Shown in pieces: positions 26,252 to 31,105 of a stretch of 56,984 bases of DNA. A program made the position numbers and the translations under genes. The DNA comes from Candidatus Omnitrophota bacterium (GTDB lineage Bacteria; Omnitrophota; Gorgyraeia; JAFGGP01). Position 1 is the first letter of the stretch; each line of letters starts with the position of its first letter. Under the pieces are notes generated by a model. It had not been told where the DNA came from. It did no database searches and saw nothing but the letters and a program-made list of their open reading frames with translations. The stretch lies in contig JAFGGP010000051.1 of NCBI GenBank assembly GCA_016930485.1, positions 1 through 56,984 of the forward strand, read 5' to 3'.

Positions 26252-26986
26252 TTACATGCTGAACTTCTCGCCGAGATAAATCTCACGTGCCTTTGGATCG
26301 GCAATCAGATCGGAAGAAGTCCCGCTGATGAGAATTTTCCCCTCGCACATCAGATAGGCCCTGTCGGTAATTGCCAGGGTCTCGCGGACGTTGTGGTCGG
26401 TCAACAAAATGCCGATGCCCTTGCTCTTCAGTTCGATAATAAGTTTCTGGGCATCTCCCACGGCAATCGGATCAATCCCGCTGAAGGGTTCGTCCAACAG
26501 GATAAACAGCGGATTTGTGACAAGTGCGCGGGTTATCTCAAGCCGTCTGCGCTCCCCCCCGGAAAGGGTATAGGCCTTGCTCTTTGCGAGACGGGCTATC
26601 CCCAGTTCATTCAGCAGTACATCAAGCCGCTGCCTCATCTGGCTGCGCGGCATAGACAGTGTTTCCAGGATAGCCATGATGTTCTCTTCAACGGTCAGCT
26701 TTCTGAAAACCGAGCTTTCTTGCGGAAGATATCCCACACCATTCCTGGCCCGTTCATGCATGGGTAACCGCGTAATATCCTTATTGTCGAAGAAAATCCT
26801 TCCTTTATCAGGCCTGATAATCCCGACGATCATATAAAATGTCGTCGTCTTCCCGGCGCCGTTCGGCCCTAGGAGCCCGACAATCTCTCCCCGCCCAACC
26901 GAAAGATTCACCTCATTAACCACCTTCCTGGAGCGATAACTTTTTACAAGCGACTCTGTCATAAGGAGATGGTTTTCTGGTGTCAT
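26252..26986 (-). CDS. lptB: LPS export ABC transporter ATPase
   Basis: [39 protein letters not shown]. Confidence 0.96.
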
Positions 26987-27798
26987 TACTGGGCCTCCGC
27001 CTTCGGGGTCTGCTGAGTCATAGAAGAAATGATAAGCCTCGGTTTCTCGGTAATCAGGATTTTATTCTCACGGGGGAAGTAATCGACGCGCTCGCTATAG
27101 GCCTTGTTCTTCCCCTGCTTGATCGTAACCGCACCGGTCGCAACAAACTTGGCGATATCGTTCCCCGTCTCATCGAGGTACGCGACCATCCGGGAGGCGC
27201 TCAGCTCTTTATCGCCGTGGACAAGGATAACATCATTGTTGAAGGTAGCGGTATTATCTCCCTCATTGAAATGGGCCGGTCCTGCACACACTATCGTCAA
27301 CGAGGAGGCTACCATTTGTATATGCGGCCTCTCCAAAAGCGTAATCTCTTTGAACCCCTTTTTCGCCAAGGCCCCCTCGGCCTCGGCAATGACATTTCCC
27401 TTTTTGAGCCGGACATACGCATCAGAGCTCAGGACCCCCTCTTTGGCATACCAGAACAGATGGTCCGTCGAGAGCGCCATTCCCCGGGAGGAATGGATTT
27501 CGATGTCCTTTTCAAGAAGGACATTCTCTGCCGGCATCTGAAGCGCCCCCCTTCTCGCGATCAGCGTCAGCTCCTGGTCCGGATATCTCCCTCTGGCCTC
27601 GACATCCGTAATCATGATGTCTTTGTCATTGACAAAGGCGGTTTTCCCTTCGATGACCCAGGTACCCTGAGACCCTTCAAGATCGGTCGAGGTAAACACA
27701 AAATGTTCGATTATCTGATCCGCATTCTCACTTGCCTGGCAGACAGGAGCAGCGATGAGAAAAATCACGGCCCATATTATGAGAAAGTTATATTTCAT
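26986..27798 (-). CDS. LptC-like plus LptA/OstA-like beta-jellyroll fusion protein
   Basis: N half resembles LptC (W-x-I-x-G, LSTDHLFW); C half resembles LptA ([20 protein letters not shown]); it alone fills the lptC-lptA slot before lptB. Confidence 0.75.
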
Positions 27799-27808
27799 CT
27801 TTAATCAC

Positions 27809-27912
27809 TGGATTCCGTATCGTAGTACGGAGTGACATGGAAGTTTTTATTTTTGAATTTTGATTTGGCATTTTGATATTTGCATTTACTTGTTACTTGG
27901 TGTCCTGTGACG
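27809..27912. repeat. REP-like half palindrome plus heptamer-periodic array
   Basis: TGGA-TTCCGTA-TCGTAG-TACGGAG-TGACA (27809-27837), then TTTTGAA TTTTGAT TTGGCAT TTTGATA TTTGCAT units and ACTTGTT ACTTGGT...GTGAC. Confidence 0.65.
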
Positions 27913-28822
27913 TCAAAAAACGCCATCTCTCATGCATCCATATCCACTGGTCGGGATACTGCCGTATATATCTCTCAACGACACTCACCCAATGCTGGGT
28001 ATATCGCCTGAGCATCTCCACCCTATCACCGGTATCCTCTATACAGATCGGCTCTTCTATAGTAAAACGGTAACGCCCAGCCTCCAGCACCATAAAAACC
28101 GGGATGATCGGACTCTTGCTCAAAAGGGCCAGCTGAACCGGCCCAGTAACAACCTCTGTCTTCTGCCCCAGAAACACAACCGGCACTGTATCGACGTCCT
28201 TGATGTCTACATCCGGAAGCACGCCGACCAGTTTGTTTTCCCTGAGCGCCCGCAGCATCCGGCGCACGCCTTCATCCCGATAGATAAGGGTTGCGCCATG
28301 CGAGGTACGCAGTGTGTGCACAAAGCGGTCAAACCGTCCGTCGCGTAACCGGCGGGCGACGGCATTTATAGGATAGCCTCTGACAGCAAGGTAGAGTAAC
28401 GCCAGCTCCCAGTTGCCAAAGTGTCCTGTCAGTAGAAGCGCGCCGCGCCGCTTCTCCAAAACACGGTCAATCTTATCGAGTCCCTCTGAGGTAACAAGTC
28501 CTGCTACTGCCTCGCGAGAAAACGACGGGACCTTCAAAATGACCGCGGCATTTCTCCCCAGATTCCGGAAAACACCGCGCGCCAGAAGTCGCCTTTCCCT
28601 CTCAGAGTGGATATCCGTCAATACCTCACGGATATTGCTGAGTGCCCGGTCCCTTTCCCTGCGTACCACAGCAAATGCCATGCTGCCTAACGCAGCGCCT
28701 AAAGAAATGGCCGCCGATAAAGGAAGCGCCCGGCAGACAAAAAAACATATTTTGAGGACGAGGTAGATTAAAAAATTCCGTACCGGCCGGATAACTTTTT
28801 TTCTAAGCGTTGTATACCGCAA
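27893..28822 (-). CDS. lpxL: Lipid A biosynthesis acyltransferase (LpxL/HtrB family)
   Basis: LTGHFGNWE, VGVLPD, YPDQWIWMHERW; sits in the kds-lpt locus. Confidence 0.88.
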   Translation of the reverse strand: MRYTTLRKKVIRPVRNFLIYLVLKICFFVCRALPLSAAISLGAALGSMAFAVVRRERDRALSNIREVLTDIHSERERRLLARGVFRNLGRNAAVILKVPSFSREAVAGLVTSEGLDKIDRVLEKRRGALLLTGHFGNWELALLYLAVRGYPINAVARRLRDGRFDRFVHTLRTSHGATLIYRDEGVRRMLRALRENKLVGVLPDVDIKDVDTVPVVFLGQKTEVVTGPVQLALLSKSPIIPVFMVLEAGRYRFTIEEPICIEDTGDRVEMLRRYTQHWVSVVERYIRQYPDQWIWMHERWRFLTSQDTK

Positions 28823-29339
28823 GAATCTGATCCCACTTCCCCTGAGATTTGAGTATCAGCTCGACCGTCTCCCTGACCGCCCCCCGGCCGCCGCGCCGGG
28901 CGGTAACGTAGTGCGCCGCCTGCTTCACTTCGCTGGCGGCATTCTCCACCGCCACCGCCAGTCCCGCTCTCTTCATGGGACCGAGATCAACCAGGTCGTC
29001 ACCGATAAAGCATATCTCTTTATCGGTGAGGCGAAGACGCCGCATAATCCTCTGATACGCCTTGAGCTTGTGGGGAAAGTTCTGGAAAAGGAGTTTGACC
29101 TGCATGTCCTTGGCGCGGCGGGTAATGGTCCGTGAGGCCCGCGCGCTGATAATCGCGGCGGCAAGCCCGGCCCGCTGGGCGAGCATCACGCCAAGGCCGT
29201 CGGCAACGTCAAAGAACTTCAGCTCATCGCCGTAGATGTCGTAGACGATCCTTCCGTCGGTCAGGACCCCGTCGACGTCCATAATCACTACCTTAATCTT
29301 TGCGGCCTTCTCTTTTACTTCGGCTAAATTGTTATCCAA
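28803..29339 (-). CDS. kdsC: KDO 8-phosphate phosphatase (HAD)
   Basis: MDVDGVLTDG, FIGDDLVD, GGRGAVRE; TTG start with AAGGAG RBS. Confidence 0.94.
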   Translation of the reverse strand: MDNNLAEVKEKAAKIKVVIMDVDGVLTDGRIVYDIYGDELKFFDVADGLGVMLAQRAGLAAAIISARASRTITRRAKDMQVKLLFQNFPHKLKAYQRIMRRLRLTDKEICFIGDDLVDLGPMKRAGLAVAVENAASEVKQAAHYVTARRGGRGAVRETVELILKSQGKWDQILAVYNA

Positions 29340-29416
29340 TGTAATCTCCTTTAAAAGTCACCAGGTCACCAGTCACATGTCACAAGTAAAAACCACAAAC
29401 CTAATCTTGAACCTTT

Positions 29417-29487
29417 TGTGTCATCCTCGGGCTTGACCCGGGGATCCATTCTTTTTTGTGGATTTCCGCTTCCGCGGGAATGACACA
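29417..29487. repeat. Composite REP-like palindrome (double hairpin)
   Basis: TGTGTCAT...ATGACACA 8-bp terminal IR enclosing CCTCGGG/CCCGGGG, ATCCA/TGGAT and TTCCGC/GCGGGA stems. Confidence 0.75.
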
Positions 29488-29493
29488 TTTATG

Positions 29494-29985
29494 TCATCCG
29501 CCGAGACCAAATTTCTGTATCGCTGTCCTTGAAACCAAACCCAAACAGAAACAAGCAAAATAAAAAAGCGCCTGCCCACTATCGTTGTGCCTAACATAAA
29601 ATCCCCAATAAATAAAATAGACTATGAGAAAAAGCATAACGGGAAAAAAGATAAGAGAACCTATAAGATTTGGTCGGTTAGGTTTTTTCTCAAAATAGGG
29701 ACCAGCTTTTGCCCCAGCATAACATACTGTTATTATGCTGTATCCGAAAATAGTATATGTATAAGAAATAAGAAACCGGGCAATAAGGGGCCGTAAACCA
29801 TAAAAAAATCCAACAAACATCAAAGACGCTGCAAAAACACCGAATATCAAAGAGGAAATATACATAATCGATTGCATATTTTTATCTGTCAGTTCTCCTT
29901 CGTCATCTTTTTTTACAATCCTAACAAATACAGGGTTGTTATCAGCACTCACAATTTTTACCGACTTGGATCTTTCTATCGTCAT
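29494..29985 (-). CDS. Hypothetical multi-pass membrane protein
   Basis: 163-aa ORF with about four hydrophobic segments, visibly AT-rich; no family recognised. Confidence 0.7.
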   Translation of the reverse strand: MTIERSKSVKIVSADNNPVFVRIVKKDDEGELTDKNMQSIMYISSLIFGVFAASLMFVGFFYGLRPLIARFLISYTYTIFGYSIITVCYAGAKAGPYFEKKPNRPNLIGSLIFFPVMLFLIVYFIYWGFYVRHNDSGQALFYFACFCLGLVSRTAIQKFGLGG

Positions 29986-30103
29986 CTCATCTTCTGCAGT
30001 TTTTTAATTTGGGATTTGGGTTTTGGAATTTATTTGTCATTTGGATTTTGTCATTTGTCATTATATGCACCGGTGACCTGGTGACTTTGTGACTCGCTGC
30101 ACG

Positions 30104-31105
30104 CTACACCAACCCCGCCTTTAAGAGGTCCTGCACATCGATCAACCCGACAGGGGCACCGTTCTCATCAACAACAGGGATTTCGTCGATCTTCTTCTCC
30201 CGCAGGATAGTCAGCGCCTCCTGGGCAAGCGTATCGCCCGAGATCGTTATCGGATGTGGTGTCATAACCCTGGAGATCGGGATATTCGAGATATCACCCT
30301 CTTTTTCGAAGTGACGCCTGAGGTCGCCGTCGGTAAAGATGCCGGCGAGCCTGCCTTTACCGTCCACAACCGTGACAGACCCGGCGCGCGCGGTGGTTAC
30401 CGCAATCAGGGCTTCCTTGACCTGGGCATCCTCGGAGACAATCGGATTATCGCTGCCTGAGCGCATAATATCCCTCACCCTGAGGAGGAGCCTTTTACCC
30501 AGCGCACCGCCGGGATGATAAAACGCAAAGTCCTCGGGCCGGAAATCGTGCATAAATGCGAGCGCGATCGCAAGGGCATCGCCGAGGGCGAGCATGGCCG
30601 TTGTTGAGGAAGTTGGCGCCAGCCCCAGATAGCACGCCTCTGACGTAACCTCCATATCAAGAAGGATGTCGCTTGAGGTAGCCAGCGTAGAATTGGCATT
30701 ATTAGTAATCGCTATCAGTTTTGCGCCGATCCGTTTAATCAGTGGAATCAACCGGACAATCTCCTCGGTCTCCCCGCTGTTCGAAAGGGCCAGAACGATG
30801 TCCTCTTTGGTAACGCGGCCCAGGTCTCCGTGAATCGCCTCGGCCGGATGCAAATACAGGCTAGGGGTGCCGGTAGAAGAAAGGGTCGCTGATATCTTCT
30901 GCGCAATAAAACCAGGTTTACCCATGCCGGTGACCACCACCCTGCCGGTAGCCTCAAAGATCGTCCGACAGGCCTCGTAGAAATTGTCCCCTACCTTCTT
31001 TACCGCCTGCGAAATCGCCTCCGCCTCGACGGTAAGGGTCTTCCTGCCGAGTGCGACAATCGTCTTGATATCCTCTTTTCTCTCCAGTTCTTTACGTAGT
31101 GACAT
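30104..31105 (-). CDS. kdsD: Arabinose 5-phosphate isomerase (SIS + CBS)
   Basis: TGMGKPG, LHPAEAIHGDLG, APTSSTT, HPGGALG, CBS pair. Confidence 0.96.
   Translation of the reverse strand: MSLRKELERKEDIKTIVALGRKTLTVEAEAISQAVKKVGDNFYEACRTIFEATGRVVVTGMGKPGFIAQKISATLSSTGTPSLYLHPAEAIHGDLGRVTKEDIVLALSNSGETEEIVRLIPLIKRIGAKLIAITNNANSTLATSSDILLDMEVTSEACYLGLAPTSSTTAMLALGDALAIALAFMHDFRPEDFAFYHPGGALGKRLLLRVRDIMRSGSDNPIVSEDAQVKEALIAVTTARAGSVTVVDGKGRLAGIFTDGDLRRHFEKEGDISNIPISRVMTPHPITISGDTLAQEALTILREKKIDEIPVVDENGAPVGLIDVQDLLKAGLV

Follow-up and report, generated by a model that had tools for sequence, protein, structure and literature searches.

The window analysed here is a stretch of 56,984 nucleotides from a Candidatus Omnitrophota bacterium, contig C10 of the metagenome-assembled genome G000 (1.9 Mb, 57 contigs, 50% GC), and its subject is an insert between kdsD and kdsC of a minus-strand operon in which a small orphan membrane gene, ORF163, is enclosed by inverted arrays of short words and followed at once by a repetitive extragenic palindromic (REP) doublet. 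In the direction of transcription, the insert begins with an outer arm on the kdsD side (30072–30094), an array of GTGAC words (GGTGACCT GGTGACTT TGTGACT) found by Tandem Repeats Finder (TRF) with period 8 and 2.9 copies. The inner heptamer arrays follow at 30007–30062, comprising ATTTGTC ×4.4 (30032–30062) and ATTTGGG ×3.6 (30007–30031) in TRF; read on the ORF strand, they are A-rich words of the CAAAT type and form the 5′ leader of ORF163 (29494–29985, minus strand). The REP doublet (29411–29494, minus strand) starts at the ORF163 stop codon, and behind it lie a spacer (29385–29410) in which T-rich words stand in degenerate form on the ORF strand (GATTAGG TTTGTGG TTTTTAC, read from the sequence), the weak partner of the inner arrays, and the outer arm on the kdsC side (29354–29387), whose GTCAC words (AAAGTCAC CAGGTCAC CAGTCAC ATGTCAC AAG) were recovered by TRF at 29356–29387 with period 7 and 4.4 copies. 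The two arms hold the partners of an inverted repeat (IR), 29354–29370 and 30072–30088, which is exact over 17 nt and 95% identical over 20 nt; by our own arithmetic, about 3e-5 such 17-nt inverted matches are expected by chance in ~950 nt. From IR end to IR end the insert measures 735 nt. The exact IR of GTCAC words, the T-rich array upstream of the ORF, the AT-rich 163-residue membrane ORF and the composite palindrome right after its stop had all been proposed in the initial annotation, and all were confirmed at these coordinates.

ORF163 encodes 163 amino acids, ends in the conserved C-terminus GLVSRTAIQKFGLGG and has a GC content of 0.36, compared with 0.55–0.62 in the flanks. Word-indexed and full HMMER searches of ~15 billion proteins returned only two full-length homologues, P0002 (169 aa, 42% identity) and P0004 (180 aa, 44% identity over the matched part). 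The pairwise distances among the three proteins are about the same (identity 0.40–0.46), and all three have the motifs GPxFE, LIGxLxxFP and YFI, as well as a near-invariant C-terminus, GLVSRTxIxKxGxGG. In all three pairs, identity is highest at codon position 2, followed by positions 1 and 3 (for example, 0.63/0.66/0.49 for positions 1, 2 and 3), while the third positions of the flanking kdsD, mtnA and thiL genes are saturated (identity 0.45–0.52); since the substitutions follow a coding pattern against saturated third positions in the flanks, the ORF163 frame is maintained by purifying selection. ORF163 is thus a genuine protein-coding gene, and a spurious ORF is ruled out by the conserved homologues and the coding substitution pattern. 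The GC content is 0.355–0.362 in all three ORFs, whatever that of the host genes (0.47–0.57). If the annotated start of P0004 is used, its N-terminal tail (NDKSQNPNEFQNPNDK; L157:530-600) is encoded in frame by a CAAAT-word array.

AlphaFold2 predicts four membrane helices for ORF163 (residues 34–61, 67–92, 104–128 and 135–158; pLDDT 64.8), the predicted product being a small four-helix protein of the inner membrane. The HMM and structure searches that the initial annotation had proposed were run, and they matched no family or solved structure in a meaningful way: no family match above threshold was obtained in Pfam (sub-threshold DUF matches only), NCBIfam, PHROG or PADLOC, Foldseek against the PDB gave generic helical bundles only (E>0.1), and the family had no match in phage, plasmid and viral collections. 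The payload had been described as unrelated to four-helix-bundle genes of the intervening-sequence (IVS) type, which agrees with the Pfam scans, in which ORF163 has no PF05635 match. When 400 genomes of the class were searched in six frames, one distant relative came up, on L159, similar in the C-terminal half only (hhalign probability 90%), which is a zinc-ribbon and transmembrane protein ending in IDKFGIG in an unrelated context. Two further matches were discarded: P0003 (2580 aa, 17 matched stretches) as repetitive and non-homologous, and a tblastn match on contig C12 as spurious, lying in another frame of an oxidoreductase gene. The ORF163 family is tiny, fast-evolving and AT-rich, and seems confined to this Omnitrophota lineage. 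Because the gene is not tied to one pathway context, we regard it as an accessory passenger and not as a partner of the enzymes for 3-deoxy-D-manno-octulosonate (Kdo) and lipopolysaccharide (LPS).

The REP doublet consists of two GC-rich stem-loops (29459–29480 and 29423–29445) enclosed by TGTGTCAT...ATGACACA. It is dispersed in G000, with 37 nhmmer matches at E<=0.01, partial and overlapping ones included, and 27 at E<1e-4; among the REP doublets of the genome, only that of ORF163 abuts an ORF stop exactly, and the doublet is kept after the stop codon in all three homologues. The Rfam model FtrB (RF02748) aligns with the doublet (29395–29497, minus strand) over its full model length at 41.3 bits (E 8e-6), below its gathering score of 66, which suggests from sequence likeness that FtrB-like small RNAs and the widespread GTCATTCCCGCG-type REP may be the same kind of element. 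G000 holds two Y1_Tnp (PF01797) genes, at C44:52687 (element C44:52547-53258) and C55:1243 (element C55:977-1757), each bracketed by direct copies of its own palindrome, GGTCACATTTAAGTGTGACC and TAACCTACGAGGTTGAAC, respectively, of which the genome has ~5 copies each. The arrangement of these genes looks like that of REP-associated tyrosine transposases (RAYTs), and the first palindrome (GGTCACATTTAAGTGTGACC) has the GTCAC/GTGAC core of the heptamer words. No RAYT gene flanked by the REP of ORF163 was found, both PF01797 genes carrying other palindromes.

The words of the arms are not peculiar to the insert. The genome scan for the IR word and for 7-bp arrays, proposed in the initial annotation, found the 16-mer AAAGTCACCAGGTCAC (at most 2 mismatches) at 28 sites in the genome against 1–2 in shuffles, and a clear excess at period 7, with 222 runs of three identical 5-mers at spacing 7 and 1, 23, 36, 68 and 27 at spacings 5, 6, 8, 9 and 10. 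The main period-7 cores are TCAGC, TAGCG, CAAAT and GTCAC, and 63 GWCAC arrays occur in the genome; pairing of the arrays by TRF consensus units proved too strict, as the words are degenerate. Elements with common termini form a size series, from ~90-nt hairpins (C24:6571-6664 and C42:3067-3158) through a gene-less composite of 240 nt with nested CAAAT/ATTTG arrays (C39:12838-13081) to the C10 insert, which is the 735-nt member with its gene included; array pairs with common termini lie ~50, 60, 206 and 703 nt apart. A gene-less copy at C44:98530-98674 is 88–91% identical to window positions 29354–29487, where the arm, the spacer and the REP doublet lie, and leads directly into arrays of ATTTG, behind which GTGAC words follow; the spacer 29385–29410 forms part of 88 nt that match C44:98530-98616 at 91% identity. 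A second gene-less site lies in the window itself, in the lpxL/lptC-A spacer (27809–27912, minus strand), where GWCAC words overlapping the lpxL 3′ end are followed by CAAAT words, half a REP (GTCACTCCGTA...TACGGAATCC) and a start codon. The 17-bp IR is the two outer arrays, ordinary intergenic repeats of this genome, and the cassette boundary that the initial annotation saw in it is not private to the insert, as this dispersed word family and gene-less copies such as that on C44 show.

On a gene map from simple ORF calling, on which the spacer statistics rest, arrays were found in 122 of 533 co-directional, 11 of 59 convergent and 4 of 60 divergent (promoter) spacers. The arms were placed in envelope operons by the initial annotation, a tie that dissolves in the genome at large, where array elements also adjoin dihydroxy-acid dehydratase-like or prepilin-like genes (known from the beginnings of the products in ORF translations only) and other junctions. 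Contig ends carry an array of period 7, 8 or 14 within 300 nt in 41 of 114 cases (36%), compared with 5% of internal 300-nt bins (odds ratio 10.5); the assembly breaks at the arrays, and this points to repetition or strain heterogeneity there.

It is conceivable, if quite improbable, that the insert is a cassette mobilised in trans, with the arms as terminal inverted repeats, an enzyme encoded elsewhere (for example, a Y1 (HUH) transposase-like protein or another array-binding protein) and varied cargo at operon junctions. The terminal inverted repeats of a miniature inverted-repeat transposable element or insertion sequence are present, in the form of the exact 17-bp IR, whose termini are found at further loci too: several elements of differing size have the terminal string AAAGTCACC...GGTGACTTT, and the terminal word string of the kdsD-side arm is also found at C36:237-258, C39:13060-13081 and C53:9336-9357. 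One arm polarity (GTCAC-, TCAGC-, TAGCG- or CAAAT-first) was seen in every adjacent or paired example inspected, and the 88–91% identity of the arm and REP module between C10 and C44, the ten-fold enrichment of arrays at contig ends and the two PF01797 genes would all suit mobilisation by a remote enzyme. However, the flanks, ...TCTCCTTTA and GTGACTCGCT..., have no common direct repeat that could be a target-site duplication; the arms are degenerate arrays that have no sharply defined end, with additional GTGACTT units outside the IR; each Y1 gene has on its flanks a different small REP family of its own; GTCAC arms were not found to enclose any other type of cargo in G000; and the phage, plasmid and viral collections contain no member of the ORF163 family. 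The lack of a recombinase in the insert, already noted in the initial annotation, was borne out, its remaining frames yielding only 58–70 aa.

Matches to PF05635, the four-helix-bundle family of IVS-type genes, were found in G000 on C9 and C55 only. The gene on C9 (72339–72715, in the region 72200–72790) has an internal TGA and inverted 8-mer arrays on its flanks (nnATTGnT / AACAnTnn). According to the initial annotation, heptamer-periodic flanks surround such genes in polysaccharide loci, and the PF05635 gene with its inverted 8-mer arrays is in agreement with this. The same gene lies just upstream of a probable radical-SAM gene, with a CNFNC motif read in the sequence.

The comparison with relatives places the family at two operon junctions. 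The sole near relative that covers the site is L031, a 1.4-kb contig (ERZ23498388) whose KdsD C-terminal 195 residues are 86% identical to those of the window; apart from this partial sequence, no KdsC or KdsD above 67% identity was found in JGI metagenomes, GTDB genomes or 5.8 billion protein clusters. After kdsD, L031 carries GACCnnA, TAGCG and AAATCAA arrays, the gene for P0002, a REP doublet after its stop and T-rich arrays up to the contig end. An assembly chimera is unlikely for the window, as this independent assembly has the same order of kdsD, arrays, ORF and REP. On L157, from the same metagenome as L031, the gene for P0004 lies between mtnA and thiL-tsaE, with GTCAC and CAAAT words upstream that are very like those of the window, and with a REP doublet and then CGCTA words downstream. 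All three family members follow A-rich arrays, of the CAAAT type in the window and L157 and of the AAATCAA type in L031, and precede a REP doublet. The gene never leaves this slot, with the A-rich array ahead of it and the doublet directly behind, and gene and REP doublet together are therefore the conserved unit, around which the outer arrays turn over as interchangeable members of the word families.

Each of the two junctions also exists in a gene-less, repeat-only state. In G000, the mtnA/thiL junction (C25:17730-17905) is a 176-nt repeat spacer, and its flanking proteins are 78% and 70% identical to those of L157; a 14-nt match in this spacer (GATTCCGGGTCAAG, E 0.15) was considered as a remnant of the unit and is not convincing. 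For the kdsD junction, 29 other families of the class were surveyed, at 41–57% KdsC identity: kdsD and kdsC stand next to each other in nearly all of them, as a rule with 0–60 nt in between, and four families (L004, L018, L019 and L027) have gene-less word-array hairpins of ~100–190 nt between them. In addition, L022 carries two paralogous small secreted proteins of ~130 aa upstream of kdsC (L022:662-1501), and a GspE/PilB-type ATPase gene lies directly upstream of kdsC in L011 (2013–3409) and L012 (1–1498); the kdsD 3′ end is seen beyond the ATPase gene in L011, and kdsD is not reached in L012. Of the exchangeable cassette format proposed in the initial annotation, what stands is a hairpin-armed insert whose gene family occupies the same slot at two junctions; fixed arms with swapped cargo do not, since L031 shows the opposite, the same gene family with different outer arrays. 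Half of what the initial annotation had itself set against its model, the same ORF as a vertically inherited gene with no empty or alternative alleles, was also found, in that the sole near relative carries the same ORF family at the kdsD site.

Taken together, these data make it somewhat probable that the unit of gene and REP doublet was relocated, or differentially lost, with the ubiquitous arrays and REPs as the sites of recombination or gene conversion. The insert combines a real membrane-protein gene with the standard repeat order of the genome, outer GTCAC arrays, inner CAAAT/ATTTG arrays and REP doublet, on which dozens of gene-less spacers are likewise built. Two genomes carry the unit behind kdsD, and a related genome carries it between mtnA and thiL; it would have been relocated, or lost with a repeat-only spacer left behind, at least once; the most likely route would be recombination or gene conversion through arrays and REPs rather than a dedicated recombinase. 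The hairpin halves on either side of the gene fit insertion into, or arm growth around, a single element. The description of the locus is much firmer than this mechanism, and several points weigh against it. The family has three members from two samples, with one near relative covering the site, and with these numbers relocation and ancient duplication followed by differential loss are indistinguishable; the three proteins are about equally distant, so the orthology of the two copies at the kdsD site is not proven; the flanks show no target-site duplication and the insert no recombinase ORF, and the sole near relative has the gene at the kdsD site. Arrays made of the same word family resemble each other in any case, and the likeness of the 5′ arms of the window and L157 may therefore not reflect common descent. 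Many ordinary genes of G000 also sit between array-bearing spacers.

A serious rival, which we nevertheless consider rather unlikely, is that ORF163 is a vertical accessory gene that has been in the kds operon since before the split from L031, that both of its spacers were colonised by arrays independently, and that the copy between mtnA and thiL is an old paralogue lost in G000. The same family does lie at the same site in the sole near relative, and the two copies at that site have different outer arms; arrays occur in about a quarter of the co-directional spacers, ordinary genes are often bracketed by them, and neither a target-site duplication nor a recombinase is present. Against it, the two spacers do not contain a complete hairpin each but share a single one, its complementary halves standing on either side of the gene, which lies in the loop; the same slot and the abutting REP doublet recur at the unrelated mtnA/thiL junction; the GC content of the gene stays at 0.36 in three host contexts; and most families of the class have a tight kdsD–kdsC junction, so the gene must have been inserted at some point. 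Relocation or differential loss of the gene and REP doublet through arrays and REPs thus remains the reading that we prefer.

The insert lies in an operon with the order rfaE-like gene, kdsB, kdsA, kdsD, kdsC, lpxL, lptC-lptA fusion, lptB and hpf, all on the minus strand. kdsB (32674–31925) overlaps kdsA (31928–31092) by 4 nt, kdsA overlaps kdsD by 14 nt, and lpxL (28822–27893) overlaps kdsC by 20 nt, compared with a gap of 764 nt between kdsD and kdsC; the opened junction amid overlapping genes, with which the initial annotation had begun, is thus real. The upstream neighbour, kdsD (30104–31105), encodes an arabinose-5-phosphate isomerase with a SIS domain and two CBS domains (Pfam SIS 1.4e-28, CBS 1.5e-23); the downstream neighbour, kdsC (28803–29339), encodes a Kdo-8-phosphate phosphatase of the HAD family (Pfam Hydrolase_3 2.8e-11), and the source names of its homologues read KDO 8-P phosphatase. 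The kdsC Shine–Dalgarno sequence AAAGGAG (29346–29352, read from the sequence) lies directly outside the arm, 6 nt ahead of the TTG start. Further downstream, a 270-aa ORF (26986–27798) matches Pfam LptC over residues 6–157 and LptA/LptD_N over residues 175–255, an apparent LptC-LptA fusion.

ORF163 would be co-transcribed with this kds-lpx-lpt operon, and the arms would leave the kdsC Shine–Dalgarno sequence free. In the minimum-free-energy RNA fold, a stem of ~25 bp formed by the arms closes the whole insert, with the kdsC Shine–Dalgarno sequence single-stranded, and at the lone mismatch beside the 17-mer the transcribed strand forms a G-U pair, where the other strand has A-C. RNase III excises 23S rRNA intervening sequences, as is well established. 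By analogy, the insert may be an RNA insulator in which the arm stem is cut by RNase III, the loop with the ORF is removed or separately stabilised, and kdsC keeps its own ribosome-binding site; on this model, which we regard as distinctly unlikely, the tolerance of an insert inside an essential operon would be explained. The closing stem with its free Shine–Dalgarno sequence, the mismatch that is compatible with pairing on the transcribed strand only, and the depletion of arrays in divergent spacers (4/60 against 122/533) are consistent with it. However, the 122 array-bearing co-directional spacers have no folding advantage on the sense strand, the better fold being sense in 52 and antisense in 70 (p=0.39), while array-free co-directional spacers do have one (225 against 181, p=1.6e-4); RNA-level selection on the array spacers was therefore tested by sense-versus-antisense folding with a negative outcome.

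Reports of paired heptamer arrays from Geobacter, cyanobacteria and Beggiatoaceae go back years, with no accepted account of what the arrays do or how they arose. The present locus shows that an array hairpin can enclose a protein-coding gene unrelated to the four-helix-bundle family, and that the position of gene and REP doublet within the repeat order is the same at two operon junctions that are unrelated. It is a small test case for whether genes are inserted or exchanged at such hairpins, whether the hairpins act at the DNA or RNA level, and how an insert is tolerated in an essential Kdo/LPS operon. In its widest form, the idea would be that array hairpins are a general cassette system of Omnitrophota that lacks its own recombinase, in which the ORF163 family and its REP doublet are mobile between operon junctions through array-guided recombination or an enzyme acting in trans, and in which the arms insulate essential operons; this we hold to be unlikely, and if it were true, the cargo would not be limited to four-helix-bundle genes. 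Nothing shows an active system of cargo swapping; the gene has moved or been lost at least once, since a relative has it at a different junction. The case is thin, with three genes from two samples, and the main result is that the supposed cassette IR is re-classed as an ordinary repeat of the genome.

Several known systems resemble the locus in part. Geobacter metallireducens has paired inverted arrays of tandem 7–8-nt units, described as 'putative global regulator binding sites' of classes 1–3, with the words GTTGCTYN, MTYCTGA and GGGACCG, at sites that include the spaces between operon genes such as proB-proA (Aklujkar et al. 2009, PMC2700814). The arrays here are alike in having four or five tandem octa- or heptanucleotide units in opposite-strand pairs at variable distance between operon genes, but their words are GTCACnn and CAAATnn, and no enclosed gene was described in that study. 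At the locus, runs of at least 3–5 tandem units of 7–8 nt and opposite-strand pairing are both found, and the published words are not; the function of the paired arrays is as unproven in Geobacter as it is in G000. Bacterial heptamer tandem repeats are also represented by the short tandemly repeated repetitive (STRR) sequences of cyanobacteria. Similarly, TAACTGA heptamer repeats lie upstream of start codons in Beggiatoaceae, Cyanobacteria and Bacteroidetes (MacGregor 2015, PMC4679880). Like the CAAAT array before ORF163, STRR and TAACTGA repeats are abundant intergenic heptamers that often lie directly upstream of starts; unlike the arrays of G000, the TAACTGA repeats are nearly all direct repeats of a single word rather than hairpin pairs, and enclose no cassette.

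The likeness to integron cassettes lies in the arrangement of the unit. An integron gene cassette is a promoterless ORF with an attC palindrome, and ORF163 is likewise a lone promoterless ORF with an imperfect palindrome of ~85 nt directly behind it, but this palindrome is a dispersed REP, mostly gene-less, and there is no cassette array. As read by eye, the REP doublet contains no integron core sites (GTTRRRY/RYYYAAC), and an attC identity was rejected on this ground; no integrase turned up near the insert, where no search aimed at IntI was made, and the REP copies are scattered singly rather than clustered. With REP doublets forming hairpins (REPINs) and with FtrB, the locus has in common a dispersed doublet of GC-rich hairpins (GTCATTCCCGCGG..., ...CCGAGGATGAC) that aligns over the full FtrB model; it differs in that no RAYT gene is flanked by the REP of ORF163 and in that the FtrB score of 41.3 lies below 66 bits. 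A RAYT/REPIN identity was accordingly rejected, both Y1_Tnp genes carrying other REPs. In 23S rRNA IVS and in IVS-type cassettes with a PF05635 ORF, inverted arms close a stem around a small ORF, as is predicted here, but the cargo of the present insert is a four-helix membrane protein and not PF05635, and its site is an mRNA operon junction and not an rRNA; the link of PF05635 cassettes to array arms is represented in G000 by the one example on C9 with its 8-mer arrays. The locus falls outside PF05635 cassettes, RAYT/REPIN, integron cassettes and Rfam FtrB, from each of which it departs in a defining feature, and it is best described as a variant of the array-armed, PF05635-type kind of cassette with a different cargo.

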